Part shown: piece by piece, positions 14,402 through 62,040 of the stretch
Layout of the letters: every line of letters begins with the position of its first letter
Numbering within the stretch: the first letter of the stretch is position 1
NCBI GenBank assembly: GCA_963741445.1
Contig: CAVUIE010000001.1
Span: 510,566-574,565 of the forward strand
Length of the DNA stretch: 64,000 nt
Source of the DNA: an uncultured Chloroflexia bacterium
GTDB taxonomy: Bacteria; Chloroflexota; Limnocylindria; Limnocylindrales; CSP1-4
Direction of reading: 5' to 3'
The notes under the pieces: model-generated
Database searches by the model: none
What the model saw: the letters and a program-made list of their open reading frames with translations, nothing else
What the model was told of the DNA's origin: nothing
Program-made: the position numbers and the translations under genes

Positions 14402-14431
14402 CCGAATCGGCCCCGGCGACTACCATCCGCG

Positions 14432-14506
14432 GGCGGGGTGGAGCAGCGGCAGCTCGTCGGGCTCATAACCCGAAGGTCACTGGTTCGAATCCAGTCCCCG
14501 CAACCA
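14432..14506 (+). tRNA. Initiator tRNA-Met (CAT anticodon).
   Basis: The sequence is nearly identical to E. coli tRNA-fMet: TGGAGCAGC D-arm, a CTCGTCGGGCTCATAACCCGA anticodon arm with three consecutive G:C pairs, GGTTCGAATCC T-arm and a CCCCGCAACCA 3' end. Confidence 0.85.
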
Positions 14507-14630
14507 AGACGCCTTTTCCTGAACCCCGGGCCCGACCACCCGGGGTTCTTCCTTGTTCGGGACCTCGCCCGCCCAGGACGAGGCGAGACCCAGATCCTTC
14601 CGGGCCGCGGATCGACGATCGAGGATCGCG

Positions 14631-15933
14631 TCAGGGGGCGACGCGCTGCCAGCTGCCCTCGCCGTCTCCCGTCCAGGGCGTCTCGGTCACGCGACCCGTG
14701 GCTGGATCGGCCGTGACGTAGTGGGACGTCGTCCCGTCCCCCTCGATGCCGCCGAGCAGGGATCGGTCGTCCGGCGCCCACGACCACCCTTCGCCGCAGC
14801 TGGCGACCTCGCTCGTCGGGCAGACGAGCTCGAGGGACGCACCCGTCCCGTCGATCGGCACCACCACGGTGCGTACGATCGACCCGTCAGGCGGAAACCC
14901 CCGGACGAGGACCATCCGCGTGGAGTCGTTGGACCAGGCCATGGGCCCGGCGGCGTACAAGGTCCCGGGAAGCGTGTCGACCTCGCGGTCTCCCGTCCCG
15001 TCGGCAGCCATCACATGGGCGCGCGCGGTGATCGTGTCGGCATTCGTGTCGAACTTGCCGTACGAGATCCACTCGCCATTCGGGGACCAACTTGCGCCGA
15101 AGATGTCCGAAGAGGCCGATGGCGCCACAAGCGTGCGGGTGGTGCCGGCGTCGAGGTCGACGAGGGACAGGCTCCGCGTCCTCGCACCGGGTAGCCACTC
15201 CGTCACCAGGACCTGAGAACTGTCGGTCGGGCGATAGCGCGGTGCCTCGGCCTGGTCTGCCGAGGCCGGGAGTCGGACGTCGAGGGTCCGTGGTTGGCCG
15301 GAGGCATCGCTGGCGACCGCGAAGATCTGCGGACGCCCGTCGACCATCGCCGTCACGAGGAGGGCACGGCCATCGGGCGAGAAGGTCCAGTCCAGAAGGT
15401 CATCGACCGGGTTCGGTGTCACCCTGATCGGGCCTGACCCGTCGGCCTTGACGACGAAGACGGCCCGGCCGCCGGGGCCGAGGTCTCGCTCGAACGCGAT
15501 CTTCGTCCCGTCATTCGAGTAGACGGGCGCGCCATCGCGCTCCGGGCCGCCGACGAGCACCCGCATCGCCGCCGTCGCGGGATCGACGGTGACGATGTCA
15601 CCAGCCTGTTCGAAGGCGATCAGCCCATTGCCGGCCACGCCGAACGGCGGTGGCAGCTTCGGCTGTAGTGCGCCGATGAAGGCCACGGTGCCGGCGATGA
15701 CCAGGGCGACGAGGAGAAGGGCCAGGACGATCGTCCGCCACGGCATGCGCGGCGCGAACGCGGAGCGGCCGGTGATGTCCGCCATGGGAAGCCACCTTTC
15801 GGGGAACGTCCAGCGAGGGCGCTGCCGCTCGCGAGCGGTCTTGCCCAGGACGTCGTCGATGTAGTCAGGGTTGGGGCCCATCGCCAGGTCGCCAAGGATC
15901 GACGGGAGGTTGCGCTCGAGGCGCTCGGGGGTC
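14631..15933 (-). CDS. Anti-sigma factor. It has an N-terminal anti-sigma domain, a single TM helix and a TolB-like beta-propeller periplasmic domain.
   Basis: Its ATG overlaps the sigma stop (ATGA). The N-terminal roughly 60 aa end in RPRWTFPERWLPM before the TM helix WRTIVLALLLVALVIAG. The C-terminal repeats (SNDGTKIAFER, FSPDGRALLV, WSPNGEWISY) are TolB or DPP-IV propeller-like. Confidence 0.7.
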
Positions 15934-15934
15934 G

Positions 15935-16495
15935 TCATGCGACCTGCGCTCCCTTGACCGGCGATGGGGTGGGCGGCTCCGTGCCGACCGCGATCCGCAT
16001 CTCGCCCAGGGCGCGATGGAGCCGCGACTTGACGGTGCCGATGGGGATCCCGAGGGTCGCCGCGACGTCCGTCAGCGGCAGCCCCAGGAAGTAGTGCAGG
16101 ACGACGATCGCGCGGCCCGCATCGTCGAGCCGCTGCATCGCGGTATCGACGATCTCGCGGTCGGCGAGCGCGCCGGACATGTCGGACGCGGCCGGCATGT
16201 CGATCGGCGTGAGCTCGACCTCGATCGGACGGCGTCGTCGACGACGCGCCTGGTCGAGACACGAGTTGATGGTCAGCCGGTACAGCCAGGCATCGAACCG
16301 GTCGGGGTCACGCAACCTCGGCAGGTCTCGCCAGGCCCGGATCAGCGCCTCCTGGACCGCGTCGCGGGCCAGCTCCGGATCCCGGAGGACGAGGCGGGCG
16401 GCCTGGTCCAGCCGCGTGACGGCCCCACGGGCGAGTTCGGCGAAGGCGTCATGATCGCCCTTCCCGGCTCGCTCGACGAGTCCACGCTGGTCCAC
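15935..16495 (-). CDS. ECF (sigma-70 family group IV) RNA polymerase sigma factor.
   Basis: The start is GTG. Region 2 reads DPDRFDAWLYRLTINSC. Region 4 reads LPLTDVAATLGIPIGTVKSRLHRA. Confidence 0.85.
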   Translation of the reverse strand: MDQRGLVERAGKGDHDAFAELARGAVTRLDQAARLVLRDPELARDAVQEALIRAWRDLPRLRDPDRFDAWLYRLTINSCLDQARRRRRRPIEVELTPIDMPAASDMSGALADREIVDTAMQRLDDAGRAIVVLHYFLGLPLTDVAATLGIPIGTVKSRLHRALGEMRIAVGTEPPTPSPVKGAQVA

Positions 16496-16618
16496 GGTCG
16501 CCTCGACATCGGCACGGCCTGGAGGTCGTGCTCACTAGGGTATGGCGTCAGGGCCGCGGTTTCGGTTCTTGGTCGGCCAGGGCGTGACCCGGGATCGATC
16601 GTCGGCCGCCGCGCGTGG

Positions 16619-48484: not shown

Positions 48485-49655
<1,171 letters not shown>

Positions 49656-49682
49656 GCGAGGCTCCCGCGCCACACGTCACCG

Positions 49683-50590
49683 CCGCCTCACGGCGGTGAA
49701 CCTGAGCCGAGATCGACGATCGCCTGGGCCGACGGCGCGGTCCGCCGCCGGCGTCCCGGCGTAGTCGTCGATGATCACGATGACGTCGCGTCCGCCGTCG
49801 ACGTCCAGGATCCACAGGTGCCAGATGGCATTCGGGCCCTGGGCGTACAGGCTGCCGCCGGGGTCGGCCGAAGACGAAGGAGTCGCCGCTGCATCAGCCG
49901 AGGTCGGGCAACTGGAGGTCGATCCGCTTGCCGGAGAAGCCGTCGACCGACACCGGCACGGTGACGTCGAGGCCTCGATGGCCCGGTGGCCGACGAGCGC
50001 GGTCGCCAGGTCGTCGACCGGTCGGGCCGATCGGCTCGTCGCCGGCCTCGGCGTCAACGGGTCCGCATCCATGACATGGATCGCGTGAACAGCGACGTGG
50101 CCATCAGCAGCGCGAGACCCGATCGCCGTCCGGTGCCGACGTGCCCTTCGGCCCGAGATCGCCCAGTCGCCGTACGCGGACCAGCCCGCGGGCACGGGGA
50201 CGCGGACGGTCACGGGTCCTCGGCGAGCGATCCGAATGAGATAGTCGCCCGGCGTCAGGCGTCCGTCAGGACGGCGATCCGGCGATCGGCGATGGCGAGG
50301 GCGACGCGGTCGGGCGTCGCGGTCGGCGCCGGACCGCCGAAGCCGGCGAGGCACCGGGCAGAACGTTGTAGCCGACCACGGCCACGACGAGCACGGCCGC
50401 CAACCCGGCGGCGATCTTGAGGTTGGTGTTCATGGGGATGTCGCCTCCAGGTCGAGGCGCCATCCGGGTCGTTGCGGCTGACGGCCGATCCGGTCGGCGA
50501 CCACGTCGATGACGCGGTCGGGGGCCTGGGTCGGGCCGTCGGCGAACCAGAGATCCAGGAGTCGTTCGGTGTCGCGATCGTGGGTCATGC
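49683..50590 (-). CDS. Anti-sigma factor (module A). It has an N-terminal anti-sigma domain, a TM helix and a type-I periplasmic domain. It is read as a 52-aa ORF plus the downstream ORF and is probably a single gene interrupted by indels.
   Basis: The ATGA overlaps the sigma stop. MTHDRDTERLLDLWFADGPTQAPDRVIDVV...PGWRL is followed by the MNTNLKIAAGLAAVLVVAVV TM helix. The C-terminus WHLWILDVDGGRDVIVIIDDYAGT matches module C. Confidence 0.55.
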
Positions 50591-51136
50591 CGAACGGCCT
50601 CCTTCGAGCGCGACCCGGGCGTCCGCGTCGAGCGCGGCGCGCATGGCGCGATGGGCGTTGTACAAGCGGGAGCGGGCCGTCCCGGCCGGGATCCCGAGGG
50701 TCTCGGCGATCTCGGACGGGGCGTACCCGAGGTAGTGGTGCATGGCGAGGATCGCCCGATGCTCGGGCGGCAGCCGGCGGAACCCGCGTTCGAGCAGGTC
50801 GCGCTCGGCGATGGTGAGCAGGTCATCGGGCGCGGCCGGTCCATCGACCGGCAGGACCCGCAGGTTCGCGGTGCGACGACGCTCGCGCGTCGCCTGGGCG
50901 ATGCAGACGTTGACGACCAGGCGATGCAGCCACGCATCGAAGCGGTCCGGATCGCGGAGTCCCCGCAGGTCGCGCCAGGCGATCACCAATGCGTCCTGGA
51001 GGGCATCCTCGGCCCGATCGACGTCGCGCAGGATCCGCTGTGCGAGCGCGAAGAGCCGGTCGCTGCGAACGCGGATCAGGTCGACGAACGCCGCCTGGTC
51101 CCCGTTCCGTGCCGCCTCGACGAGATCGCGATCCAC
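50588..51136 (-). CDS. ECF sigma factor (module A). The start may be as far upstream as 51244.
   Basis: VDRDLVEAARNGDQAAF...DPDRFDAWLHRLVVNVC...GIPAGTARSRLYNA. Confidence 0.8.
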
Positions 51137-51284
51137 CTGCGCCGCCTCGGTCGTCGCGCCCAGCGGGGGCGCCGTCCGACTCCTATGGTCGAGTCGCCCG
51201 GTCACGCGTTCATTCTTCTCGGCGCTCGCGTCGGGTCTAGGCATGATTCGAGGCCGACAGCGGCCGCCGGAGAGGAGGGACGTC

Positions 51285-51749
51285 GTGTATCAGTGGCTCG
51301 TGTTCGCCCACCTGGTCGGACTGGTCTTCTTCGCGATGTGCCACGGCGTGGCGATCTTCAGCGCGTTCCGGATCCGCAGCCTGCGCGACACGGCGGCCGT
51401 CCGCGGCCAGCTCGAGCTGGCGACGCAGTCGAGCCGGCTGATGTACATCGGCCTGATCCTGCTCGCGGTCGGCGGCATCGGCGCGGCGTCGTCGGCGAAC
51501 CTGTGGGGCGCGGCCTGGATCACGTGGTCGATCGTCGTGTTCATCGCCGTCATCGTGGCGATGTACGCCGTCGGCGGGAGCTACTACTACCCGTTGCGCG
51601 ACCTCGTGTACGGCAAGGACGGCGCGGCGCCGGCCGAGGGCGAGGCCCTGGCCAAGGCCCTGGACTCGCGTCGTCCCGAGATCCTGCTCGCGATCGGTGG
51701 CGGCGGCCTCCTGATCCTCATCTGGCTCATGGTGCTCAAGCCGGCCTGA
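51285..51749 (+). CDS. DUF2269-like four-TM membrane protein.
   Basis: The GTG start has an AGGAGGG RBS. The protein has four hydrophobic helices. Confidence 0.45.
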   Translation: MYQWLVFAHLVGLVFFAMCHGVAIFSAFRIRSLRDTAAVRGQLELATQSSRLMYIGLILLAVGGIGAASSANLWGAAWITWSIVVFIAVIVAMYAVGGSYYYPLRDLVYGKDGAAPAEGEALAKALDSRRPEILLAIGGGGLLILIWLMVLKPA

Positions 51750-51801
51750 CGTCCGCGTCTGCCGCCGCGTATCCTCGACCCGCCCGAACCCGAGGAGACG
51801 C

Positions 51802-52222
51802 GATGACTCGAACCGTGTGGCTGCTGGTCGCCACGTTCGCCTTGGTCCTGACCGCCTGCGGCGGATCGTCATCCGGGACGCACGACATCAAGGGCACCGC
51901 CTGGACCGTGAGCACCATCGGCGGCCAGGCGACCGTGCCCGGTGCGCAGCCGACCGATCGCCTTCGGCAGCGACGGGACGATCAGCGGCTCGACCGGCTG
52001 CAACACGTACTCGGGCACGTACACGGTCGACGGCGACAAGCTGACGGTCTCCCAGCTGGCCATGACCAGGAAGGCCTGCGCGGACCCCGCCGTCAACACC
52101 CAGGAGGCGGCGGTCACGGCGGCCTCACGGGCGCCACGAGCTGGTCCATCGGCTCCGACGGCAACCTGACCATCAAGGGCGCCACCGAGATCGTGGCCAA
52201 GCCGGGCGCCGCCGCCACCTGA
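51802..52222 (+). CDS. META or HslJ-like (DUF306) lipoprotein, frameshifted.
   Basis: The lipobox reads LVLTACGG. The META domain reads TAWTVSTIGG...GSTGCNTYSGTYTVDGDKLTVSQLAMTRKAC in alternate-frame ORF 51942... Confidence 0.5.
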
Positions 52223-52272
52223 TCGAACGGTCCCGGATCGACCGGTCGACGCCGGCCGTCGCTGGAGGGTCG

Positions 52273-53304
52273 GATGCGCATCGCCCACGTCCGCGAGCGG
52301 CACGCCCCGGCGGGTGCGCCCTGGCGGCTGGCCGCGGCTGACCCGTCGGCGGCGCCGGCGTAGGCGATCCGACCCGCTGGATCGACCTCGAGCCGGCCCG
52401 TCGTCGCGCCGTCGCCGACCGGCCCGAGCTGGCGCACGACAGCGCGCTGCATCGCCAGCCGCTGACGACGCTCGACGACCTGCTCGCGCGCCGGATGCGG
52501 GTCGACGCGTTGCGCGACCTCGTCGAGGGCTTCGCCGCCCGCGGCGACGACGACCCGGCGCTCCTCGATGCGGCGGACCTCGTCTTCGGGCCGCCCGTGC
52601 TCCAGCCGCCGTCGATCCGCGACTTCTACGCGTTCGAAGGGCACGTCCGGACGATGTGGGAGCGTCGCGGCGGCGAGGTCCCCGAGGCGTGGTACCGGCT
52701 GCCGATCTTCTACTTCAGCAACGCCTCCGAGGTCCGCGGTCCCGGCGATCCCGTCTGGGCGCCGGCGGCGTCGTCGGAGCTGGACTACGAGCTGGAGGTC
52801 GCGGCGCTGATCGACACCCCGGCCATCGACCTCTCCGACGGCGACGCGGAGGACGCGATCGGCGGCTACACGATCTTCGACGACTGGTCGGCGCGCGACC
52901 TCCAGCGCGACGAGACGACCGTCCGGCTCGGGCCGGCGAAGGGCAAGGACTTCGCGAGCTCCTTCGGGCCGTGGCTCGTGACGCCGGACGAGCTGGCCGA
53001 CGCGCGGTCGGGGACCGGCTACGACCTCGCCATGACCGCCGAGGTGAACGGCACCGAGACCAGCCGCGGCCGCTGGTCGGATGCGCAGTTCTCGTTCGGG
53101 GCGATGGTCGCGCGCGCCTCGGCGGACGCCCGCCTGCGGCCCGGCGACCTCATCGGCAGCGGGACCGTCGGGACCGGCTGCCTGCTCGAGGTCCGCGACG
53201 CGACGCTCGGTCGCTACCTCGAACCCGGTGACGAGGTCACGCTCCGCATCGACCGGCTCGGCGCGCTGACGACCCCGATCGTGGCGCGCCCGCCCGGGAC
53301 CTGA
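52273..53304 (+). CDS. Fumarylacetoacetate hydrolase (FAH) family protein. It has an N-terminal frameshift and is read from ORF 52495...
   Basis: The FAH-fold signature region reads DYELEVAALID...IFDDWSARDLQ. The C-terminus reads DLIGSGTVGTGCLLE...PGDEVTLRIDRLG. Confidence 0.7.
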
Positions 53305-53387
53305 CACGAAGACTGAACCATCGCCGCCGCTGGCGACTCATCGGGGGCGTAGCGTCCACGTCGGACGCATCGACGGAGGACCGCCGG

Positions 53388-53943
53388 GTGCAGCATCAAG
53401 GACTCGTGGACCTGGCTCGTCGGGGTGATGAGGAAGCGTTCACCGACCTCGCACGTGCGGTCGGCGACCGGCTCATGGCGATCGCGTACCGGATCCTTCG
53501 CGACGCGGATCGAGCCGAGGACGCGGTCCAGCAGGCCCTGGTGATCGCCTGGCGCGAGCTGCCGACGCTGCGCGACCCCGACCGGTTCGACGCCTGGCTT
53601 CGGCGGATCCTCGTCAACGCGTGCTACGCGGAGGCGCGGCGACACCGGCGCTGGGCGGCGAACATCCGCGTCCTGCCGGTCGACGGACCGGACGGGCGCG
53701 ACGACATGTCGACCGTCGTCGAACGTGACCGCCTCGAGCGCGGCTTCCGGCGGCTGTCGCCGGAGCAGCGCGCCATCTTCGTCCTGCATCACGACCTCGG
53801 CTTGACGCTCGCGGAGATCGCCGGCGATGCTCGATGTGCCGCTTGGGACGGTCAAGTCGCGCCTTCACCACGCCGCCCAGGGCCTTCGTGCGGCGCTCGA
53901 CGCCGATGCGCGATCGGCCACCATCGCGGAGCGACTCGCATGA
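53388..53943 (+). CDS. ECF sigma factor (module B), with a frameshift near 53825.
   Basis: GLVDLARRGDEEAF...DPDRFDAWLRRILVNAC. Region 4 (LDVPLGTVKSRLHHA) lies in the next frame and ends ...AERLA with an ATGA overlap. Confidence 0.8.
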
Positions 53944-54790
53944 CCACGGACCGCGACTTCGACCGGATCGCCCGCATGCTGGCTGACCGCCGGGCCCGAC
54001 GAGCTGCCCGAACGCGTGGTGGACGCCGTGGCGGACGAGATCCATCACACCCGACAGCGGCATGTCCTGCATCTGCCGCGGAGGTTCCCACCGATGTTCA
54101 TCCCGGCACGTACCGCCGCGATCCTCGTGCTTGCCGCCCTCGTCGCCGTGGCCGGGTTGGCCGTCGTCGGCGGCGCAGGGCGCGGTCCTGCCCCGTCCAA
54201 CACGCCGTCCCCGGAAGCGGCAGCAGACGCAACCTTCGCCCCGATCCCGCCTCCCGTACCTCGACGCGCACATTCATCTCGCCCCGGAACGGGCTGCGCG
54301 TGAACTACCCGGGGGCACGGACGGTGACGCCGGCCACATCGGGATGGCTTCCTGGGACGCAGTGATCGGTACGGCAGCGCTGCCCTCGACGTCCTGCAAG
54401 GCCCGGACGCCAGATTCGTGGCCGCCGCCCAGCTCGTACCTGACGGCATGACCGACGCCGATTGGCTGACGGCCTGGCGTCGCAGCCTCGCGACGCGAGG
54501 TCGAATGCACGAACGTGCCGGCGAGATGGCCCACGGTCCAGATCGTCGGCGATGCCCGGGTACGTCGTCACGGATCGGCGACCAGGAGCAGCGGGCGATC
54601 CCGGTCACGACGAACGCCGGCTCGATGCAGGCCATCGTGATCGTCGCGAACGTGGCGTACGACCTCCGACTGGACGGGAACGTTGACGCGCCTACTTCGA
54701 TGCGCTCCGTCGCGACGATGCGAGCTCGCGCCTTCCGACGTGGGGGACCCGTCGCCCCAGCCCTGAAGCACCAGCCGAGCGGGCATCATC
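53940..54790 (+). CDS. Anti-sigma factor (module B). The 3' end is unresolved because of frameshifts.
   Basis: MTTDRDFDRIA... then ELPERVVDAVADEIHHTRQRHVLHLPRRFPPM followed by the TM helix ARTAAILVLAALVAVAGLAVV (ORF 54016..54303). The periplasmic region is spread over at least two frames. Confidence 0.45.
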
Positions 54791-54795
54791 GGCGC

Positions 54796-55311
54796 ATGAC
54801 CCTCCGCATCGAGCCGATGACCGTCGACGACTGGCCGTCTGTCCGGCGCATCTACACCGAGGGCATCGCGACCGGGGACGCCACGCTCGAGCGCGAGGCG
54901 CCCGACTGGGACCATTTCGACCGGTCCGCATCGCCCCGATTGCCGGCTGGTCGCCAGGCGACGTCGATCCCGACGCGGACGTGCGCGATCGTCGGCTGGA
55001 CCGCGCTGAGCGCGTACTCGGGACGGCGCGTCTACACGGGCGTCGCCTGGGAGAGCGTCTACGTGGCGGAGGCCGCCCGCGGCACGGGCGTCGGCCGCGC
55101 CCTGCTCGAGGCGCTCATCCCGGCGTCCGAGGCGGCCGGGTTCTGGACGCTGCTCGCCGGGGTCCTGGCGGACAACGCCGCGAGCCTCGCGCTCCACGAG
55201 CGGGTCGGCTTCGTCCGCGTCGGCGTCCAGCATCGGCTGGGCCAGGACGCGACGCGGTCGCTGGCGCGACGTCGTCCTGCTCGAGCGGCGGAGCTCGACG
55301 GTCGGCGCTGA
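54796..55311 (+). CDS. GNAT family N-acetyltransferase (phosphinothricin acetyltransferase-like).
   Basis: MTLRIEPMTVDDWPSVRRIY...VYVAEAARGTGVGRALLEAL...LHERVGF shows GNAT motifs A and B. Confidence 0.7.
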   Translation: MTLRIEPMTVDDWPSVRRIYTEGIATGDATLEREAPDWDHFDRSASPRLPAGRQATSIPTRTCAIVGWTALSAYSGRRVYTGVAWESVYVAEAARGTGVGRALLEALIPASEAAGFWTLLAGVLADNAASLALHERVGFVRVGVQHRLGQDATRSLARRRPARAAELDGRR

Positions 55312-55406
55312 GCCGGGCTGCCAGCACGACTGAACGTTCGCGCTGGCCGCCTCCCGTCATAGTGGGTAGTCCGCGGCCATCGAGGTGGCGACGACCGGAG
55401 GTCCAG

Positions 55407-55957
55407 GTGGATCGAGACCTGGTCGAGCAGGCCCGTCGGGGTGATCGCGAGGCGTTCGCCGTCCTGGTGCACCAGGTCAGCGACTCGCTCTACGCGGTCG
55501 CCCAGCGGATCCTGCGCGACTCGGCCTCGCCGAGGACGCGCTGCAGAACGCCCTCGTCCTCGCCTGGCGCCGGATCCCGCATCTGCGGGAGCCGGACCGG
55601 TTCGAAGCCTGGATCCATCGGATCCTCGTCCATGCCTGCTACGACGAAGCGCAGCGGGCACGCCACTGGGTCGCCAACGTCCGCGTCCTGCCCGTCGACG
55701 GGCCATCGACCCCGGACGGAAGCGACGCCATCGCCGACCGCGACGAACTGGAGCGAGCGTTCCGCCGGCTCCCGGTCGACCAGCGGGCGGTCTTCGTCCT
55801 GCACCACTACCTCGGGCTGCCGCTCGTGGAGATCGCCGAGATGCTGGAGATCCCCGCGGGACGGCCCGATCGCGCTTGCACTACGCCACGCGCGGGCTCC
55901 GCGACGCCCTCGATGGCCGAGGCGGAGCCCGCTGTCCACGGAGGACGACTCGCATGA
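55407..55957 (+). CDS. ECF sigma factor (module C), frameshifted.
   Basis: The GTG start has a GGAGG RBS. VDRDLVEQARRGDREAF...EPDRFEAWIHRILVHAC. Region 4 reads LPLVEIAEMLEIPAG. It ends ...GGRLA with an ATGA overlap. Confidence 0.8.
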
Positions 55958-56885
55958 CCGACGATCGCTCGCTCGAACGCGCCGCTCGGTCGTGGCTCGA
56001 GGCCGGTCCGTCCCAGGCGCCCGACCGCGCCGTCGAGGCCGCGCTCCTCCGCATCGAAACGACACCACAGGAGCGGGATCTCGGAGTCCCGTGGAGGTTC
56101 CCCACGATGACCACTCCGGCTCGCGTCGCCTCGGCCGCCGTCATCGGCGTGCTCGCGATCGGCGGCGCGCTCTTCATGCTCGGCAGTCCCGGTCCGATCG
56201 GCCGGTCGGCGGCCCGGCCCGTCGCCGACGCCGAGCCAGCCTGCATCGCCGTCGGCCAGAGTGCCCGCGGCGCTCCATGACGTCCGCTGAGGCGGGGACG
56301 TACTCGTCGCGCCGTTCGGGCGGGACGACCGCCTGTGCACGCGCCGCCATCAGCCCGGATGCACCGAAACAGCCGCCGATCGACGCGATCCGCTTCACGT
56401 TCACCGTCCCCGACGGTTGGGAAGGGCATCGTTCAATTCGATCTGGCTCCCGTGTCGCGAACAACTCGGCTCCCGACGGCGCGAGTCTGATCTTCGAGAG
56501 CGGCGGTCGGCTGTCGAACGATCCGTGCGGAGGCACGCGGGGACATCCCGGTCGGACCGAGCGTCGACGATTTCGCGACCGCGCTTGCGGAGCACCCGAC
56601 CCTCGGGGCGACGACGCCTGTCGATGTCGCGATCGACGGCTACTCCGGGAAGTTCGTGGAGCTCCAGGCGCCGCCGACCTCTCCGGCTTGCCGGCCACGA
56701 TCATGCGGCCCTCCCGTGGGAGTCATCGCTGCTATGTCCAGGGACCGAGCCAGCGTTGGCACCTTCGGATCATCGACGTCGATGGCACTCGGGTGGTGGT
56801 CCAGACCAACGACTATGCCGGGACGTCCGCCGAGCACCGCGCCGAACTCGAGGCGATCGTCGATTCGATCCAGATCAACCCCTGA
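55954..56885 (+). CDS. Anti-sigma factor (module C) with a type-I periplasmic domain, frameshifted.
   Basis: MTDDRSLERAARSWLEAGPSQAPDRAVEAALLRIETTPQERDLGVPWRFPTM is followed by the TM helix AVIGVLAIGGALFML. The C-terminus reads QRWHLRIIDVDGTRVVVQTNDYAGTSAEHRAELEAIVDSIQINP. Confidence 0.65.
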
Positions 56886-57663
56886 GCGAGGTTCGTGCGC
56901 CAGCTCGCCGCCCGCGCGCACCTCGAGCGTCCGGCGCTCCGCGCCGGACGCCACCGTGCCCGCCGCCTCGGCCGCGTCCACGCTGACCAGCAGCTCGCCG
57001 GCCGCGGCCGCGGACGCGAGGCGGGCCGAGGTGTTGACGGGATCGCCGAGCGCGGTGAAGTCGTCGACGAGCCCCTCCGGCCCGGTCGGGCCGACGAACG
57101 CGATCCCGGTGTGGACCCCGGCGCCGATCGGGATCGCGCCCATCGGGGTCGCGTCGGCGCGCCCGGCGCTGGCGACGAGCTCGGTCGCGGCCGCGATCGC
57201 CGCCGCGGCATGGTCGCGGCCCGCTGACCCCGCCGAAGAACAGGCCGATCACCTCGTCGCCGACGAGCTTGTCGACGATGCCGCCGTGGTCGAGGATGGC
57301 CGACGACCCGAGCCGGTAGAAGTACGCGAGGAAGTCGTGGAAGCCGGTGGGGCTGAGCCGCTCGCCGATCGCCGTGGACCCGCGGATGTCGGCGAAGAGC
57401 AGCGTGATCGGGATCTCCGCCCCGGTGACGCCCATCTTGCGGTACTGGCGATGCAGTTCTGGCAGATGGCCGGGTTGCCCGGGAAGCGGGCGAAGCCGAG
57501 GTGCTTCATGACCGCGCCGCCGGCTCCCCCGAACGGGGCGTTGCACAGCTTGCAGCGCGGCGACGACGGGATGCGCTTCATGTTGTTGCGGAACGTTCGC
57601 GAACCCCTCGTGCTCGCCGGTCAGGATCTGCCGGAACTCCTCGTTGGTCCACGTCCCGGGCAT
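56875..57663 (-). CDS. Class III adenylate or guanylate cyclase with an N-terminal zinc ribbon, frameshifted.
   Basis: The cyclase core reads ITLLFADIRGSTAIGE...DKLVGDEVIGLFF and the downstream GAIPIGAGVHTGIAFVG...GDPVNTSARL (ORF 56640..). The N-terminus has CKLCNAPF...CQNC in ORF 57249... Confidence 0.65.
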   Translation of the reverse strand: MPGTWTNEEFRQILTGEHEGFANVPQQHEAHPVVAALQAVQRPVRGSRRRGHEAPRLRPLPGQPGHLPELHRQYRKMGVTGAEIPITLLFADIRGSTAIGERLSPTGFHDFLAYFYRLGSSAILDHGGIVDKLVGDEVIGLFFGGVSGPRPCRGGDRGRDRARRQRRARRRDPDGRDPDRRRGPHRDRVRRPDRAGGARRRLHRARRSRQHLGPPRVRGRGRRAAGQRGRGRGGGHGGVRRGAPDARGARGRRAGARTSLRG

Positions 57664-57764
57664 GGCGCGACTCTACGCCCCGTCACCGGGCTCGCGGATG
57701 ACGGTCCGGACCGACGCCGCCACGACCTAGACTGACCTCCACGGACGAAGGAGGCCAGTCGCCG

Positions 57765-58989
57765 ATGTTCTACGCCTCGCGTGGCAGCGTCCCGCACACC
57801 CGGCACACCCAGCACCGCGCGGCCGACGGCTCGCTCTACGCCGAGGAGCTGTTCGGCGTCGAGGGGTTCACCGGTCGCTCGTCGCTGCTCTACCACCTCG
57901 TGCCGCCGACGCGGACGCACCGGATCGAGCCGGGCGCGACCATCGCGCTCGAGGAGGCCGACGACGGCTACCACCACCATCGATTGATCGATTCGGCCGG
58001 CGTCCCGGTCGCGGGCGACGCGGTCACCGGGCGCATCCCGCTGTTCTTCAACCACGACATCGTGATGGGCGTGGTCCGCCCGGCCGACGTCGATGCCGGA
58101 CGGCACCTTCTACCGCAACGGCGAGGCCGACGAGCTGCTCTTCGTCCACGAGGGCGCGGGCCTGCTCGACACGAACTTCGGGCCGCTGCGCTACGGGCCG
58201 GGCGACTACCTGGTGCTGCCGATCGGCACGACCTGGCGGCTGGAGCCGGACGCCGGATCCGCCCAGCGGATGCTCTACCTCGAGTGCCCGTCCGAGATCG
58301 AGGCGCCGAAGCGCTACCGCAACGACTACGGCCAGCTGCTCGAGCACGCGCCGTACTCGCAGCGCGACATCCGCGTGCCCGACGAGGTGCCGCCGCGGAC
58401 CGACGAGGGCGACTTCGTCGTCCACGTCAAGATGCGCAACCGGCTGACCGCCTACCACTACCGGCATCACCCGTTCGACGTCGTCGGCTGGGACGGCTAC
58501 CTCTGGCCGTTCGCCTTCGACATCGCGGACTTCCAGCCGATCACCGGGCGCGTCCACCAGCCGCCGCCGGTCCACCAGACGTTCGCGGCGCGGAACTTCG
58601 TGGTGTGCTCGTTCGTGCCCCGCAAGTTCGACTACCACCCGCTCGCGATCCCGGCGCCGTACAACCACTCGAACATCAACTCGGACGAGGTCATCTACTA
58701 CGTGGCCGGCAACTTCATGAGCCGGCGCGGGGTCGGGATCTCCTCGTTCACGCTCCACCCGGCGGGGATCCCGCACGGGCCGCACCCGGGCACCGCCGAG
58801 GCGTCGATCGGCAAGGAGGCCACCGAGGAGCTGGCGGTGATGGTCGACACCTTCCATCCGCTGCGCCTGACGAAGGAAGCGGCCGCCCTGGAGGACGACC
58901 GCTACCCGTATTCGTGGCTGCCGGCCGAGGACGCCCCCGGCGAGGCCCGCGAACTCGCGGACCGCGGACCGGAGGCGTTCCCGGACTGA
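57765..58989 (+). CDS. hmgA: Homogentisate 1,2-dioxygenase, with a frameshift near 58090.
   Basis: FAARNFVVCSFVPRKFDYHP and the N-terminal LYAEELFGVEGFTG are HGO signatures. Confidence 0.8.
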
Positions 58990-59000
58990 GCCCGCTGTCG

Positions 59001-59843
59001 TCAGCTCGGGGCCGGGTTCTGGCTTGGCGCCGGCGGGTCGACGGCCGAGGCCGGGTCGAGCTTGACCGTCGAGATCCAGCTGTCGAACAGCGCTCGGAAC
59101 GCATCGGTGGTCCCGGCCGTGGTCGAGTCCTGGCCCCAACCTCCGAACTCGTAGAACCGGTCGTCGACCCAGACATACGCGTCAATCAAGTTGCACCCCA
59201 CGCCGACATGGCCGACATGGCCATCGATCGTCATCGCGGTACCGTCCGGCGGACCGCTGTCACAAACGGTCTTGTCGGCCGCTGGGTCGCTGGTGAAGTA
59301 CTTCGCCAGGAACTGGTCCCGGGTCTCACCTGGCCTCAAGCCGGTCGAGACCGACGAGAGGTATATGTACTCGTTGCCAGACAGGCCCATCAACATATCC
59401 GTGTTCTCGATGCTGTCTGCCGACACCGTCCAGAACGCCTGCGCGGGCGTGGCGATCCAATCCATCGGGACCGCCGCGGAATACCCGTACAGCGACGAAG
59501 TGAACGGTTTCCAGGTCGTCGTGTCCAGGGGGGTCGATGAGCGCGGGGAGGGACTCGGGCTCGCGGACGGCGGCGGGACCCCAACGCCGTCGAGCGACGA
59601 CGGTGGCCGGGTGAGGAGCGCTCCGCCGAGGACGATGGCGGTGACCGCCGCCGCCCCGAGGGCGAGCTTGGGCATGGTGCTCATGGTCGGGAACCTCCGC
59701 GGCAGGCGCATGGCATGCCGCTGTCGGATCGATGGGAACGCCGCCAGGACGATCTGGAGCGTGGGTTCGGGTGCGGCGTTCGGGTCGTCCTCGAGCCAGT
59801 CGGCGATGCGGGGATCGAAGGACGCCCGGTCCTGGTCGTTCAT
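59001..59843 (-). CDS. Anti-sigma factor (module D) with a type-II periplasmic domain.
   Basis: The ATGA overlaps the sigma stop. DPRIADWLEDDPNAAPEPTLQIVLAAFPSIRQRHAMRLPRRFPTM is followed by the TM helix LALGAAAVTAIVLGGALL. The C-terminus reads ...C.SGPPDGTAMTIDGH...C...DRFYEF....TDAFRALFDS. Confidence 0.7.
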   Translation of the reverse strand: MNDQDRASFDPRIADWLEDDPNAAPEPTLQIVLAAFPSIRQRHAMRLPRRFPTMSTMPKLALGAAAVTAIVLGGALLTRPPSSLDGVGVPPPSASPSPSPRSSTPLDTTTWKPFTSSLYGYSAAVPMDWIATPAQAFWTVSADSIENTDMLMGLSGNEYIYLSSVSTGLRPGETRDQFLAKYFTSDPAADKTVCDSGPPDGTAMTIDGHVGHVGVGCNLIDAYVWVDDRFYEFGGWGQDSTTAGTTDAFRALFDSWISTVKLDPASAVDPPAPSQNPAPS

Positions 59844-60393
59844 GCTGGTCGCTCCTGCCGGGTGATCGCGGATGGAGCATCCGCATCGAGCGCGACCCGC
59901 AGCTGACGGACCGCGTAGTGGAGGCGGGACCGCGCGGTCCCTTCAGGGATCCCAAGGGTCGCCGCGATCTCGGTGAGCGGGTACCCGAGGTGGTGGTGCA
60001 GCACGACGACCGCCCGCTGTTCCGGTGTCAGCAGTCGGAAGGCGTGCTCGAGGGCGTCGCGATCGACGACCGAGGTCGCATGATCGGGCGTCGTAGGAGG
60101 GACGATCGAGAGGACCGGACCCGGGCCGTCCAGCGTCGTTGGCTCCGTCCTTCGACGTAGCACGCGTGGACGACGATCCGATACAGCCAGGCATCGAAGC
60201 GGTCCGGATCGCGAAGGGTGGCGAGGTCGCGCCAGGCGCTCAGCAGGGCCTGCTGCGTGACGTCCTGTGCGCGGTCGGCGTCACGGAGGATGCGGTACGC
60301 GATGGCGTAGCAGCGGTCGACGTGCTGGGTCGCCAGGTCGGCGAATGCCGTCTGGTTCCCCTGTGCCGCCTGCTCCACGAGATCGCGTTGCAC
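59840..60393 (-). CDS. ECF sigma factor (module D), frameshifted.
   Basis: MQRDLVEQAAQGNQTAF...DPDRFDAWLYRIVVHAC. Region 4 (LGIPEGTARSRLHYA) lies in ORF 59840..60163. Confidence 0.8.
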
Positions 60394-60523
60394 GGCATCG
60401 GCCCCTTCGGGGCGAGCAGCCCGTCTGGCCGCGTCACTGAGTATGGGACCGCCCGGTCCCGAAACGTTCAGGACCGGGCGGTTGGCGGGCGCACCGACCG
60501 ATCGTGGTCGGTCGCTGTGCTTC

Positions 60524-61327
60524 CTAGGTGCCGAACTTGAACGAGGCCAGGATCCGATCGAAGGTCGCTCGATCCGTGGCGGTCAACGGAGAGTCGACCG
60601 AGGTGACGAGGTTGATCTCGAAGAAGCGGTCCTTGCTGGCGCCGAGGACCTCGACGACCTGGACGCTCTGGGCACAGACCTGGTCCTCCTGGCGCATGGT
60701 CACGCCATCGAGGGTGATGTCGTGCCGATTCGACGTCGAGTTGCAGAAGGCGGTGTTCTGGGCATCGAATTCCGCCAGCAATGCCGCCGCGTCCTTGGCG
60801 GACGCCACGGGGACCGACGTGATGTAGACCTCGATGCCAGTCGGCATCTGGCGAAAGACATCCATCGTCCAGCCGCCCTTCTCCGGAAGACCGATCTTGG
60901 GCCAGTCGAAGTTCGCGGGGGTCAGGGACCAGGACGCCGGATGGTCGAAGGTGTACGCGAACCGGCTCGACGTGGAGGTCGTCCAGTCCGTCGCGCCGGT
61001 CGCCTGGGCCTGCAGCGACGGCGGCGCCGACGATGGCGCCGCGGTGACGCTTGGAGATGGCGAAGGCGTGGGACCGCCGGCGTGCTGCTGCGGTCCGATG
61101 AAGTAGGCGGCCCCACCGAGCATGGCGATCACCGCGACGGTGGCAAACGCGATCCGCGCGTACGTTGGCATCAGAGGGGTCCTCCACGGCACCCACGTGG
61201 AGCGCCGCTTCTGTTCGGTCGTTCGGGTGGTGAAGGAGATCGCTCGCCGGGTCAGTTCGGGGAGCCGGTTCGGCCCCTCTTCCAGCCAGGCGGCGAGGAC
61301 GGCGTCAGGATCACGCTGAACATTCAT
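60524..61327 (-). CDS. Anti-sigma factor (module E) with a type-II periplasmic domain. The ORF is an intact 267 aa.
   Basis: LAAWLEEGPNRLPELTRRAISFTTRTTEQKRRSTWVPWRTPLM is followed by the TM helix IAFATVAVIAMLGGAAYFIG. The C-terminal domain is homologous to module D (W..TS..Y.Y....P..W..TPA...C...DG.TM..D..C.....DRFFEI....TATDRATFDRIL). Confidence 0.75.
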   Translation of the reverse strand: MNVQRDPDAVLAAWLEEGPNRLPELTRRAISFTTRTTEQKRRSTWVPWRTPLMPTYARIAFATVAVIAMLGGAAYFIGPQQHAGGPTPSPSPSVTAAPSSAPPSLQAQATGATDWTTSTSSRFAYTFDHPASWSLTPANFDWPKIGLPEKGGWTMDVFRQMPTGIEVYITSVPVASAKDAAALLAEFDAQNTAFCNSTSNRHDITLDGVTMRQEDQVCAQSVQVVEVLGASKDRFFEINLVTSVDSPLTATDRATFDRILASFKFGT

Positions 61328-61875
61328 GCCAGTCGTGCCTCCGTGGGATCGAGTCGGCTGTCAGCGATGATCGCCGCGCGCAGGGTTCGGGTGGCGTAGT
61401 GCAGTCGAGACTTCACCGTTCCGGTCGGCGCACCGACGATGTCGGCGATGTCGGCCAGGGGAAGCCCGGCATGGTGGTGCAGGACGAAGACCGCACGGTG
61501 CTCCGGCGTCAAGCGCAGGAACGCGCGATCGAGGGCGTCCCGGTCGTCGACCAGGACCATCGGATCCGGCACGCTCGGTCCGTCGACCGGGAGCGCCGTG
61601 ATGCGGGTGCTCCAGCGCCGATGCCGGCGCAGCTCCTCGTAACAGGCATTGACGAGCAGCCGATGGAGCCATGGGCCGAAGCGTTCCGGGTCACGCAGCC
61701 TGGGGAGTTCCCGCCATGCGTTGAGGAACGCCTGTTGGACGGCGTCCTGAGCCCGCTCCGCGTCGCGCAAGATCCGGTACGCGATGGCGTAGCAGCGGTC
61801 GCCGTCCAGGTCGACCAGTTCCGAGAAGGCGATCTCGTCGCCATCCCGTGCCCGTTCGACCAGCCTCGTCCGCAT
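61324..61875 (-). CDS. ECF sigma factor (module E). The ORF is an intact 183 aa.
   Basis: MRTRLVERARDGDEIAF...DPERFGPWLHRLLVNAC...GAPTGTVKSRLHYA. The ATGA overlaps the anti-sigma start. Confidence 0.85.
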   Translation of the reverse strand: MRTRLVERARDGDEIAFSELVDLDGDRCYAIAYRILRDAERAQDAVQQAFLNAWRELPRLRDPERFGPWLHRLLVNACYEELRRHRRWSTRITALPVDGPSVPDPMVLVDDRDALDRAFLRLTPEHRAVFVLHHHAGLPLADIADIVGAPTGTVKSRLHYATRTLRAAIIADSRLDPTEARLA

Positions 61876-62040
61876 CGGCGATCACTCCCGATGGCACCCT
61901 GATCGGGCGCTTCACCCAGTACAGATGGTCGCACCCGCCGAAAGGTTCAACCGGTGCCTCGCGGAACCGGACCACGGGGGCGCAACGGCGGGACCAGTTG
62001 GTGGGTGCCCGTGCGACCTGCGGCGCGCCACCATCCCCAC

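Follow-up and report, generated by a model that had tools for sequence, protein, structure and literature searches.

Introduction

For single-pass anti-sigma factors, regulated proteolysis is the default expectation for release of the sigma factor. Two of the described anti-sigma classes, class I and class II, are relevant here (PMC6101532; PMC7406223). In the canonical layout, the anti-sigma gene occupies position +1 relative to its sigma gene, is translationally coupled to it, and encodes a short cytoplasmic domain with one transmembrane (TM) helix (PMC7826278). Casas-Pastor et al. caution that putative anti-sigmas do not all function as such (PMC7826278).

Here we analyze a 64,000-nucleotide stretch of DNA (referred to as the window), in which six modules would represent paralogous ECF signalling units of an uncultured, high-GC Chloroflexota bacterium from soil, most likely a member of the class Limnocylindria. 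We consider it probable that these modules are self-contained, each combining a single-pass anti-sigma, a class II-like clamp, a variable sensor and an internal start.

Six ECF sigma/anti-sigma modules

The window contains six ECF sigma genes, encoding proteins of 183–186 aa with Sigma70_r2 and r4 domains and pairwise identities of 47–65%. Modules A–E lie at 49.7–61.9 kb and module F at 14.6–16.5 kb, which agrees with the five pairs and distant sixth pair listed in an earlier note made from the DNA letters. Modules B and C are on the plus strand, and A, D, E and F on the minus strand. A profile search detects exactly six copies of a ~52-aa domain in the window, each directly 3' of an ECF sigma gene. 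In all modules the anti-sigma consists of this Cys-free N-domain, one TM helix and a variable ectodomain. It would thus be a single-pass membrane protein with a cytoplasmic N-domain and an extracytoplasmic sensor. The genes are as follows.

61324..61875, minus strand: ECF sigma E, intact, 183 aa (Pfam Sigma70_r2 8.7e-15, r4 2.4e-10)
60524..61327, minus strand: anti-sigma E, intact, 267 aa (profile 4.7e-32; ATGA at 61327); N-domain 1–53, TM ~55–73, Pro/Ser linker, PsbP/DcrB-like ectodomain 112–267
59840..60393, minus strand: ECF sigma D, frame-broken (tblastn in two frames; stitched, 183 aa)
59001..59843, minus strand: anti-sigma D, intact, 280 aa (profile 1e-28; ATGA at 59843)
55401..55957, plus strand: ECF sigma C, frame-broken (tblastn in three frames; stitched, 185 aa)
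55954..56885, plus strand: anti-sigma C, N-domain and TM intact, ectodomain frame-broken (profile 3e-34)
53388..53943, plus strand: ECF sigma B, frame-broken (tblastn in frames 3 then 1; stitched, 184 aa)
53940..54790 (3' end approximate), plus strand: anti-sigma B (profile 3.9e-21, HMM positions 13–80)
50585..51136, minus strand: ECF sigma A, intact (Pfam r2 and r4)
49677..50588, minus strand: anti-sigma A, at least two frame breaks (profile 2.7e-14, HMM positions 1–46; ATGA at 50588)
15935..16495, minus strand: ECF sigma F, intact, 186 aa (Pfam r2 9e-14, r4_2 2.3e-13)
14631..15938, minus strand: anti-sigma F, intact, 435 aa (profile 2.9e-26; PF07676 PD40 1.3e-11; ATGA at 15938); divergent N-domain, TM, PD40/TolB-like beta-propeller

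Sigma A probably starts at GTG 51136, because the ATG at 51244 sits upstream of the promoter. A GNAT gene starts at 54796, just beyond the approximate 3' end of anti-sigma B.

Only modules E and F are fully intact in the DNA as given, together with sigma A and anti-sigma D. Frame breaks interrupt sigma B (at about 53822–53827), sigma C (at about 55524, 55860 and 55907), sigma D and anti-sigmas A, B and C; in anti-sigma B, one break follows about residue 12 and others fall in the ectodomain. With 6 of 12 genes interrupted, and the adjoining HPPD, HgmA and GNAT genes broken too, the array might be read as a set of real pseudogenes, the decaying remnant of an expansion. We regard this as decidedly unlikely. 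After stitching, every sigma is 183–186 aa long with no further lesions. The break in sigma D is a 1-nt deletion at ~60117; at this point an extra A is present in a related contig (L001), in which the sigma is called intact at 198 aa. Compared with contig L024, in which pair C is intact, the breaks in sigma C are 1-nt indels, three of four in short G/C runs (GG/CC). In the relatives, different genes are broken, and all genes are called intact in an NCBI assembly with the same synteny (L051). Same-strand frame switches occur throughout the window, unrelated genes included, and the names and sizes of the affected contigs look long-read style. Long-read errors are therefore the most likely cause of the frame breaks.

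Operon structure and promoters

The sigma stop overlaps the anti-sigma start as ATGA in all six modules, with a GGAG-type Shine-Dalgarno (SD) sequence 9–13 nt upstream. The same junction, with a sigma gene upstream, is present in 21/21 readable family members from nine related loci, so the uniform coupling first noticed in the window extends to its relatives. This overlap, with the SD lying inside the 3' part of the sigma gene, would tie production of the inhibitor to that of the sigma.

As suggested in the earlier note, we searched for −35/−10 boxes upstream of the sigma genes. A single [T/A]GAAC[C/G] element lies 85–91 nt upstream of the LVE codon in 13/13 sigma genes. The −10 element is weakly defined, and the spacing from TGAAC to CAT varies from 17 to 22 nt. 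The motif positions in the window are as follows.

61924..61948, minus strand: promoter-like element of module E (TGAACC, spacer, CATC)
60442..60469, minus strand: promoter-like element of module D (TGAACG-N20-CATA)
55332..55361, plus strand: promoter-like element of module C
53315..53342, plus strand: promoter-like element of module B
51184..51211, minus strand: promoter-like element of module A
16541..16568, minus strand: promoter-like element of module F (AGAACC-N20-CATA)

Each module may therefore be seen as a putative operon of two genes headed by a separate ECF-type promoter ([T/A]GAAC[C/G], ~20 nt, CAT[A/C]). Since each would have such a promoter of its own, each is probably autoregulated. 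Within the window, the search gave no further target promoter beyond those of the modules themselves, in keeping with the remark that targets are not obvious from the neighboring genes.

The N-domain family

After frame correction, the six N-domains align with invariant P19, P23, Q39 and M53 and a conserved W/L-GP, and the motif similarity survives the correction. In A and B the shared domain is visible only once the frames are stitched; these copies match the profile separately (E=3e-14 and 4e-21). The copies are diverged, with 20–36% identity to that of E. The claim that the domain holds no Cys or His is half right: Cys is absent from all six copies, whereas His occurs in A (one), B (four) and D (one), none of them conserved. 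The lack of Cys bears out the view that this is not the zinc-binding ZAS pattern.

With a cutoff of E<=1e-3, the profile matches 6,092 representatives of 50%-identity clusters; with E<=1e-10, it matches 2,539. The organism names among family members are only Candidatus Limnocylindrales and Chloroflexota. Of 249 domain hits, 233 place the domain at the N-terminus, and sigma–anti-sigma fusion proteins occur as well (P0125: r2, r4, then the N-domain at residues 184–264). Searches with 16 members returned no Pfam or NCBIfam match to the N-domain even at E<=10, and no PDB chain matched its profile; no characterised family thus turned up behind it. These results support the idea that the N-domain defines a large, expanded and uncatalogued anti-sigma family, as the proposal of a lineage expansion had it.

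Predicted sigma binding

We modeled sigma E with residues 1–55 of anti-sigma E as an artificial head-to-tail fusion, using AF2 with monomer weights. The fusion model has a pLDDT of 81 and a pTM of 0.76. The N-domain is predicted as two short helices (about residues 7–16 and 24–36), with pLDDT 77–90 in the fusion and 39–58 without sigma, the latter in a control with a different alignment. The modeled sigma state is closest to SigW/RsiW (TM 0.83), EcfG/NepR (0.78) and CnrH/CnrY (0.78), and further from RseA/MucA-type complexes (0.45) and RNAP-bound sigma (0.35), a comparison to be read with the caveat that AF2 may favor the closed ECF conformation whatever the anti-sigma. In helix number, length and modeled sigma state, the N-domain resembles the class II clamp by architecture, while CnrY and NepR have no sequence similarity to it. 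From this model we infer the binding of sigma and its geometry: the two helices would clamp sigma in a closed, RNA-polymerase-incompetent state, like CnrY and NepR (class II) and RsiW.

RsiW itself belongs to class I, and the best structural match of the modeled sigma is SigW bound to it. The N-domain could then be a degenerate, shortened class I domain (helix 1, loop and helix 2 of the RsiW/RslA type) that has lost the zinc ligands and helices 3–4 and binds mainly to sigma region 4. By eye, W-L-E-x-G-P...P-D-R-x-V-E-A-A-L resembles Y-L-D-G-E-L...E-R-x-x-V-E-x-H-L, and the sole hhalign alignment falls in exactly that register. However, hhalign gives this alignment a probability of 0.4%, and its 20 columns are 10% identical. 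zf-HC2 and RskA are absent even at E<=10 in the 16 members, and no class I chain is hit by the profile in the PDB. Only two helices are predicted ahead of the TM, and ~52 aa leave too little room for a bundle of three helices and a further one (PMC7406223). We consider a class I origin unlikely and retain the class II-like clamp.

Exchange of the sensor ectodomains

The ectodomains are diverse, as the earlier note had it. That of F is a PD40 propeller, and relatives carry Kelch propellers. The ectodomain of anti-sigma E is PsbP/DcrB-like (AF2 pLDDT 83–97), with Foldseek matches to CyanoP, DcrB and LpqN. A and C share a third type (tblastx of A against C, 1.6e-16 in shifted frames).

For the ectodomain of anti-sigma E, the nearest homologs (73–79% identical) bear D-type N-domains, and the DNA homology of module C to L024 ends at the TM helix, at ~56113. 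These comparisons show that ectodomains have been swapped between modules at the boundary of the closing motif and the TM helix. The extracytoplasmic half would thus be a variable sensor (PD40 propeller, PsbP/DcrB-like or others) that is exchanged between modules. The notion that members have diversified only in their sensor domains does not hold: N-domains and sigmas have diverged as well, and the sensor halves were swapped.

A candidate internal start in the closing motif

No part of the family is more strongly conserved than the motif that closes the N-domain (P46 97%, R48 98% and M52 95% in 217 proteins). The earlier note had described it as [PW]-[WR]-R-x-P-x-M; the motif is real, but reading it at the protein level is incomplete, as its codons reveal selection on the nucleotide sequence. 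In the DNA, P-[W/R]-R-x-P-x-M reads (T/C)GG-AGG-N9-ATG. R48 is AGG in 22 of 23 copies, whereas all other conserved Arg positions use CGN. At position 47 the codon is either TGG or CGG, with GAA in its place in the F-like group (GAA-AGG in 4/4 aligned members); at position 52, 19 copies have ATG and three have GTG. Background usage is 3.9% for AGG, 10% for GAA and 30% for GTG. The bias has P of about 3e-30, or 2e-13 when nine lineages are counted, as the 23 copies share phylogeny. The sites in the window are as follows.

61169..61185, minus strand: internal GGAGG-N9-ATG (Met53) of anti-sigma E (TGG AGG ACC CCT CTG ATG)
59682..59698, minus strand: internal GGAGG-N9-ATG of anti-sigma D (CGG AGG TTC CCG ACC ATG)
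56093..56109, plus strand: internal GGAGG-N9-ATG of anti-sigma C (TGG AGG TTC CCC ACG ATG)
54080..54096, plus strand: internal GGAGG-N9-ATG of anti-sigma B (CGG AGG TTC CCA CCG ATG)
50431..50448, minus strand: internal GGAGG-N10-ATG of anti-sigma A, beside a frame break (GGAGGCGACATCCCCATG)
15783..15800, minus strand: internal purine-rich GAAAGG(TGG), then ATG (Met52), of anti-sigma F (GAA AGG TGG CTT CCC ATG)

GGAGG-N5-10-ATG occurs only 22 times in the window; five of these are the internal sites and three are junction SDs. Genuine starts in the clade have GGAGG at the same spacing in 21 of 29 cases. Both mRNA structure and G+C dip at the internal site, and the tail of the N-domain is a coil (pLDDT about 65 in the fusion model). 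Both the internal SD and the ATG are missing from one divergent member (L048 14120), so a family member can do without the feature. Because of the AGG bias and of ATG or GTG at a fixed spacing, an in-frame internal start is indicated, and the closing motif looks like mainly a nucleotide signal, an embedded ribosome-binding site with an in-frame start.

In the protein itself, P46 and P50 may be important too, as both are conserved though an SD needs neither. P-W-R-x-P-x-M could even be purely a protein motif without internal initiation, either a sigma2 contact like class I helix 4 or a recognition site next to the membrane for a site-2 protease or ClpXP. Its location would suit either another contact with sigma or a handle for proteolysis, and its intermediate pLDDT of about 65 does not indicate disorder. 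As a parallel, a conserved aromatic residue of class I helix 4 often lies against a proline of the sigma (PMC7406223). What a protein motif leaves unexplained is the use of AGG for Arg48, the alternation of W and R at position 47 (chemically unlike, with both codons ending in -GG), the rare GAA of the F-like members, and the preference for Met or Val (always GTG) at position 52, where Leu and Ile hardly ever occur. We therefore hold this reading to be rather improbable.

On the other hand, SD-like elements have been suggested to act as pause sites near TM segments. The in-frame GGAGG might accordingly be a programmed translational pause before synthesis of the TM, which would assist targeting to the membrane or the capture of sigma during translation; in every member, an SD-like element does lie 4–5 codons ahead of the stretch that encodes the signal anchor. 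Yet a pause needs no start codon, and ATG or GTG stands at the fixed 9-nt spacing in 22/23 copies. The TM helix is still unmade at that point, and a complete n-region and h-region follow Met52, like those of an independent exported protein. We find a pause very unlikely, and return to the internal start.

Initiation at the internal site would yield, in addition, a short isoform that begins with Met-x4-Arg and a hydrophobic helix, a normal signal-anchor N-terminus. It would lack the sigma-binding domain and keep the sensor. We infer the use of this start and the role of the sensor-only isoform from the codon pattern. Such a stand-alone exported protein might suggest that the downstream gene is no anti-sigma at all, but encodes a membrane or exported protein that is co-transcribed with the sigma and is its target. 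The searches of Pfam, NCBIfam and the PDB gave no homology to a proven anti-sigma, and the caution of Casas-Pastor et al. applies (PMC7826278). Nevertheless, the canonical layout (PMC7826278) is kept in 21/21 members, the AF2 confidence of the N-domain rises only with sigma present, and the N-domain, unlike the independently swapped ectodomain, co-varies with the type of sigma. We give this possibility hardly any weight and regard the gene as an anti-sigma.

What is new here is a candidate internal-start signal hidden in the most conserved motif of the family. If made, the short isoform may act as a decoy or buffer for the signal or the protease, or may be the module's own exported output.

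Six ECF sigma/anti-sigma modules with a common inhibitor domain

The G+C content of the window is about 72%. By frame-by-frame translation, tblastn with intact paralogs and Pfam, we located six ECF sigma genes, each followed by an anti-sigma gene; the pairs are referred to as modules A–F.

15935-16495, - strand, ECF sigma F
50585-51136, - strand, ECF sigma A
53388-53943, + strand, ECF sigma B
55401-55957, + strand, ECF sigma C
59840-60393, - strand, ECF sigma D
61324-61875, - strand, ECF sigma E

Once the frames are stitched, all six sigmas are 183–186 aa long, within the ECF size range of about 170–220 aa, and they share 47–65% pairwise identity. Pfam matches Sigma70_r2 and Sigma70_r4/r4_2 in sigmas E, F and A, which is the two-region composition of ECF (group IV) factors. 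In NCBIfam, the general family TIGR02937 (sigma70-ECF) scores above its cut-off, while the closest family, TIGR02983 (SigE-fam_strep), scores under its own.

A six-frame HMM scan of the 64 kb revealed exactly six copies of the N-domain, the cytoplasmic start of about 52 aa that precedes a single TM helix and a variable ectodomain in each anti-sigma. Each copy lies directly 3' of an ECF sigma gene. The two genes overlap as ATGA in six of six junctions, with a GGAG-type Shine-Dalgarno (SD) sequence 9–13 nt upstream, within the sigma coding sequence. The core observation of the earlier note, six ECF pairs with a common N-domain and ATGA coupling, is therefore borne out. Its description of the domain as free of Cys and His holds for Cys, which is absent from all six copies, and fails for His, which occurs unconserved in A (one), B (four) and D (one). 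It had also misplaced the strands of modules B and C, whose sigma genes are both on the + strand.

Between the modules lie genes of tyrosine catabolism (an HPPD-like fragment, FAA hydrolase and HgmA) and a GNAT gene. The same order of catabolism, GNAT and ECF genes is found at 49020-58989 of the window and in the related contigs L024, L025, L050 and L051, with a varying number of modules; L025 has only C- and D-type modules in that stretch. A putative cyclase fragment at 56905-57248 has no Pfam match, and Guanylate_cyc is found at the syntenic place in relatives only. Other features of the window are as follows.

14432-14506, + strand, tRNA-Met (CAT), the only Rfam/ARAGORN match in the window
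17577-20105, - strand, surface-protein-like ORF of 842 aa with six Big_9 repeats, cadherin-like domains and DUF11
~33400-33600, - strand, repetitive Pro/Ser/Thr-rich coding stretch, matched by the anti-sigma E linker as a tblastn ladder
61954-63513, + strand, ORF of 519 aa with a bacterial TSP3 repeat and a long poly-proline run

The tRNA gene is flanked by an MFS-type transporter gene (12944-14401) on one side and by the 3' end of anti-sigma F on the other. The 842-aa ORF is weakly similar to the ectodomain region of anti-sigma F (tblastn, E=8e-5), and the 519-aa ORF adjoins the module E promoter, divergent from sigma E. The tblastn matches of the Pro/Ser/Thr-rich stretch to the anti-sigma E linker recur at 6-nt offsets and reflect low-complexity sequence instead of homology.

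Frame breaks in the array

The earlier note misjudged the state of the genes: frame breaks interrupt sigmas B, C and D and anti-sigmas A, B and C. The break in sigma D is a single base missing relative to a 97%-identical metagenome contig (L001), whose gene is intact. At its breaks, sigma C differs by 1-nt indels from the syntenic L024, in which pair C is called intact; three of the four indels fall within GG/CC runs. The broken modules might be read as pseudogenes, which we judge unlikely: stitching restores full-length sigmas, the broken genes differ from relative to relative, and in L051 (NCBI assembly GCA_045804925.1) the gene order is the same and every gene is called intact. Unrelated genes are affected as well. 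The HPPD, HgmA and GNAT genes are frame-broken (GNAT at its C-terminus), and a crude third-position-GC tracker reveals same-strand frame switches along the whole window. Based on the stitched sigma lengths, the 1-nt indels, the intact relatives and the breaks in unrelated genes, we read the frame breaks as assembly errors, and the window has the look of long-read sequence from a high-GC genome that was assembled without polishing. As a practical warning, indels in long-read MAGs of high-GC organisms can break half the genes of a region.

Outside the ECF modules, the tracker gave 42 candidate same-strand switches (for example 44281-46021, 48991-49051, 55250-55311 and 58051-58111), some of which are ordinary gene junctions; across 44–46 kb of the window they recur every 200–300 nt. 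Identity to L001, a JGI metagenome contig, is mosaic over window 59829-61740: the sigma E and anti-sigma E genes differ at one position in about 1.2 kb, and the adjacent sigma D by about 8%. The pattern suggests that strains have recombined or that the assembly is chimeric.

A large uncatalogued family of anti-sigma domains

A family profile built from 16 sequences matched the representatives of 6,092 clusters (50% identity) at E<=1e-3; at the stricter E<=1e-10 it matched 2,539. Most of these proteins have 200–575 aa, and 233 of 249 domain hits place the N-domain at the N-terminus. Among the few exceptions with an internal domain are fusions of a sigma with an anti-sigma, such as the family protein P0125, in which r2 and r4 are followed by the domain at residues 184–264. 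The proteins have no Pfam annotation and are named ‘hypothetical’ or ‘WD40 repeat protein’. Homologs with organism names come only from Candidatus Limnocylindrales and Chloroflexota MAGs. Soil families of the class Limnocylindria have about 68% G+C and 2.4–3.2 Mb, and soil lineages have more sigma factors (PMC13212565). The array is part of an anti-sigma family of soil Chloroflexota that is very large and lacks annotation.

The earlier note proposed a Pfam search as a check on whether the domain was already characterised. Pfam and NCBIfam scans of the N-domain were empty, and 16 members searched at E<=10 gave no consistent family. No PDB chain matched the profile better than E=0.4, with no anti-sigma among the matches at E<=10, and profile-profile comparison with the class I segments of RslA, RsiW, DdvA and ChrR (hhalign) gave a probability of 0.4%. 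Since all these comparisons are negative, we regard the family as uncatalogued. Our literature search found no anti-sigma work on the soil lineage that carries it.

The N-domain resembles class II inhibitors by architecture

In the literature consulted, anti-sigma domains fall into just three structural classes (PMC6101532, PMC7406223). Class I comprises a bundle of three helices, a linker and one further helix; class II is a clamp of two helices, and class III has a three-helix fold. In the class II clamp, helix 1 lies on sigma4 and helix 2 on sigma2, along the outer surface of a closed sigma. We modeled sigma E joined head-to-tail to anti-sigma E(1–55) with AlphaFold2, using an alignment with five paralogous pairs, 11 sigma orthologs and 30 N-domains. 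In this fusion model (pLDDT 81, pTM 0.76), the anti-sigma forms two helices (residues 7–16 and 24–36, pLDDT 77–90), and the conserved tail of the N-domain is a coil (pLDDT about 65). Full-length anti-sigma E modeled without sigma has helices at 7–17 and 24–39 with a pLDDT of only 39–58, from a different alignment, which makes it an imperfect control. The modeled sigma is closed. It superimposes on the sigmas of SigW/RsiW with a TM score of 0.83, of EcfG/NepR with 0.78 (rmsd 3.6 Å) and of CnrH/CnrY with 0.78, compared with about 0.45 for the RseA/MucA-type ‘sandwich’ complexes and about 0.35 for RNAP-bound sigma.

By the published class definitions, the two predicted helices and the closed sigma suggest that the N-domain probably works most like class II, in which it is placed by architecture and not by homology. 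As in CnrY and NepR, the sigma-binding region is very short with just two helices, here predicted, and the modeled sigma adopts the closed sigma2/sigma4 state of CnrH/CnrY and EcfG/NepR. CnrY also has a single TM helix after its two-helix region, as the window anti-sigmas do. In contrast to class II, there is no detectable sequence similarity, CnrY and NepR being absent from the PDB profile matches at E<=10, and the window anti-sigmas have a large variable sensor ectodomain and a putative embedded start site and come from a different phylum.

Class I (RsiW, RslA, ChrR, RseA and RskA; Pfam zf-HC2/RskA) shares with the window proteins an N-terminal cytoplasmic inhibitor, usually one TM helix, the +1 gene position and frequent translational coupling. 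RsiW wraps closed SigW, the best structural match of our modeled sigma, and the N-domain bears a faint pattern resemblance to class I across helix 1, loop and helix 2. However, two predicted helices in about 52 aa differ from a three-helix bundle with a fourth helix, the N-domain has neither Cys nor the HxxxCxxC (Hx3Cx2C) motif nor a zf-HC2 or RskA match, and the hhalign probability rejects a class I (ASDI/ZAS) assignment statistically. We regard the rival reading of a degenerate class I domain as unlikely. The earlier reading that this is not the zinc-binding ZAS or RskA pattern agrees with these results. As for class III, its member RsbN has three helices instead of two, BldN matches the modeled sigma poorly (TM 0.47), and no sequence match was found; the RsbN type is apparently limited to Streptomyces (PMC6101532).

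According to the ECF classification 2.0 paper (Casas-Pastor et al. 2021, PMC7826278), the anti-sigma of most of the 114 ECF groups that have one is encoded at +1, has a single TM helix and matches no Pfam domain known from characterised anti-sigmas. The window layout is exactly this generic one, and is ordinary for that reason; Chloroflexi go unmentioned in the main text of that paper. The modules are standard ECF modules in layout, and their inhibitor domain is a new variant, class II-like by its predicted architecture. We also considered that the downstream genes might not encode anti-sigmas at all, and judge this unlikely.

A promoter element at a fixed position

Conserved -35/-10 boxes upstream of the sigma genes, a check suggested in the earlier note, were found for the -35. 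Exactly one [T/A]GAAC[C/G] occurs within 220 nt upstream of 13 of 13 sigma genes (six in the window, seven in relatives), always 85–91 nt before a conserved LVE codon, with CAT[A/C] about 20 nt further on. Measured from the anti-sigma ATG, 16 of 21 family members have the element 593–631 nt upstream. The six modules have the -35 core in common and differ in the next base and in the -10-like element, which is poorly defined. ECF promoters typically have a -35 element that contains AAC. The fixed position of this AAC-type element supports, rather than proves, autoregulation of each module.

Scanning the window gave 17 sites against about 10 expected, of which only the six sigma promoters are convincing. 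In this 64-kb scan, no extra promoter copy precedes any neighbouring gene and no regulon target was identified, nor is there a shared motif before the tyrosine-catabolism genes.

A putative second translation start in the anti-sigma genes

The N-domain closes with the motif P-[W/R]-R-x-P-x-M, positions 46–52 in family numbering (the Met is Met53 in anti-sigma E). A degenerate DNA pattern with CGN at Arg48 matched no true family member, window included, because this conserved Arg is encoded by AGG. Among 23 N-domain copies from ten sequences, 22 have AGG at Arg48, and the one without it has no Met either; wherever Arg occurs at the remaining conserved positions (5, 9, 25, 41, 44 and 57), its codon is CGN. 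Position 47 is TGG (W) or CGG (R), unlike residues with a common -GG codon end, or GAA in the F-like group. At position 52, 19 copies have ATG and three have GTG, and at the protein level the residue is Met in 95% and Val in 4%, essentially never Leu or Ile. In the window, AGG makes up 3.9% of Arg codons, GAA 10% of Glu codons and GTG 30% of Val codons. The AGG bias has P of about 3e-30 for 22 of 23 copies, and 2e-13 when nine lineages only are counted.

The resulting GGAGG-N9-ATG inside the anti-sigma genes has the core and spacing of genuine ribosome-binding sites of the clade (for example CAGGAGGTTCCCCG-ATG), where an SD-like core is found at 21 of 29 called gene starts. It is an SD-like element 5–10 nt from an in-frame start codon, conserved beyond the needs of the protein. 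GGAGG-N5-10-ATG occurs 22 times on both strands of the window, five times as internal sites and three times as junction SDs. Predicted mRNA structure and G+C dip at the internal site as at the primary start, and the predicted product begins Met-x4-Arg followed by a hydrophobic helix, a normal signal-anchor N-terminus. These codon data strongly support a nucleotide-level signal for a second translation start, which was unexpected. From the codon bias, the genuine-type SD spacing and the signal-anchor N-terminus, we propose an in-frame internal start yielding a sensor-only isoform, and we infer its use by ribosomes. As rivals we weighed a motif that acts purely in the protein and a translational pause, and hold both to be less likely. 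The practical warning is that what reads as a conserved ‘protein motif’ may be a signal in the nucleotide sequence.

Another P-R-M-P-W-R in anti-sigma F (residues 63–68, 15743-15751), just before the TM helix, was considered as a copy of the signal; its Arg is CGG and it has no SD, so the signal is not repeated there. A divergent member with a Kelch ectodomain, at 14120-14914 of the related contig L048, has neither AGG nor Met (CGC, TTC), so the internal start is not universal, and this gene offers a natural control for experiments.

At the sigma/anti-sigma junctions, the final sense codon of the sigma gene is GCA in 19 of 21 tabulated cases (window and related loci), with GTG and CCG in the two L048 modules. 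The predominance of GCA follows from the ATGA overlap. GCA is expected to be rare among Ala codons at such G+C; if so, it is the second case in these modules of a translation signal dictating a rare codon.

In-frame internal starts giving N-terminally truncated proteoforms are established in bacteria by retapamulin Ribo-seq in E. coli (bioRxiv 10.1101/520783). Those sites likewise combine an SD-like element with an in-frame start codon inside an ORF, and the predicted second product lacks the N-terminal domain. They were measured, whereas the window sites are deduced from codon-level conservation; the window site also differs in lying exactly at the anti-sigma domain boundary and in being conserved across a large paralogous family. 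Our literature search found no report linking internal starts to anti-sigma factors. If used, the embedded start would be a mechanism for which we found no description, with one gene giving both an inhibitor and an inhibitor-less copy of the sensor.

Ectodomains and exchange of sensor halves

The ectodomains fall into several types. Anti-sigma F carries a PD40/TolB-like propeller (Pfam), A and C have a common type distinct from that of F, and relatives' anti-sigmas carry Kelch propellers. The ectodomain of anti-sigma E has no Pfam match by sequence; it is modeled with a pLDDT of 83–97 as an alpha-beta-alpha sandwich of the PsbP/Mog1p/DcrB-like fold. In Foldseek, this model matches CyanoP (E=9e-7, TM 0.60–0.65) and also DcrB and the mycobacterial LpqN, Mtc28 and Apa. 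By eye, the ectodomain of D, and probably that of B, looks similar.

The anti-sigma E ectodomain was found in only 18 clusters. Its nearest homologs (73–79% identical) bear D-type N-domains, 72–96% identical to that of window anti-sigma D, whereas proteins with E-type N-domains have more distant ectodomains, 46–61% identical to that of anti-sigma E. Meanwhile, DNA homology between module C of the window and L024 ends at the TM helix, with flanks 85–95% identical. The E ectodomain on D-type N-domains and the break in L024 homology indicate that sensor halves are exchanged between modules at the boundary where the putative internal start lies.

We speculate that the ATGA-coupled start would give the full-length anti-sigma, and that the conserved ribosome-binding site and start codon inside the gene, where the cytoplasmic part meets the membrane, would give a signal-anchored, sensor-only protein. 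The latter may buffer the signal or act as a decoy for it, or the module may export it as an output in its own right. In this model the internal start would also bound a ‘sensor cassette’ that can be swapped, in essence a gene for an exported protein complete with translation signals of its own, and such cassettes may recombine between paralogous modules. We put forward this model of two-product anti-sigma genes with swappable, self-translated sensor cassettes tentatively, at slightly less than even confidence.

ECF sigma/anti-sigma pairs are among the main bacterial signalling systems and are much used as orthogonal parts in synthetic biology. The family would add a compact (about 50 aa), Cys-free inhibitor domain with many diverged, presumably orthogonal natural pairs. 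The embedded start, if used, would give a concrete model for sensor-domain exchange, and cassette recombination, if true, would explain both the rapid diversification of sensors and the absence of obvious regulon targets.
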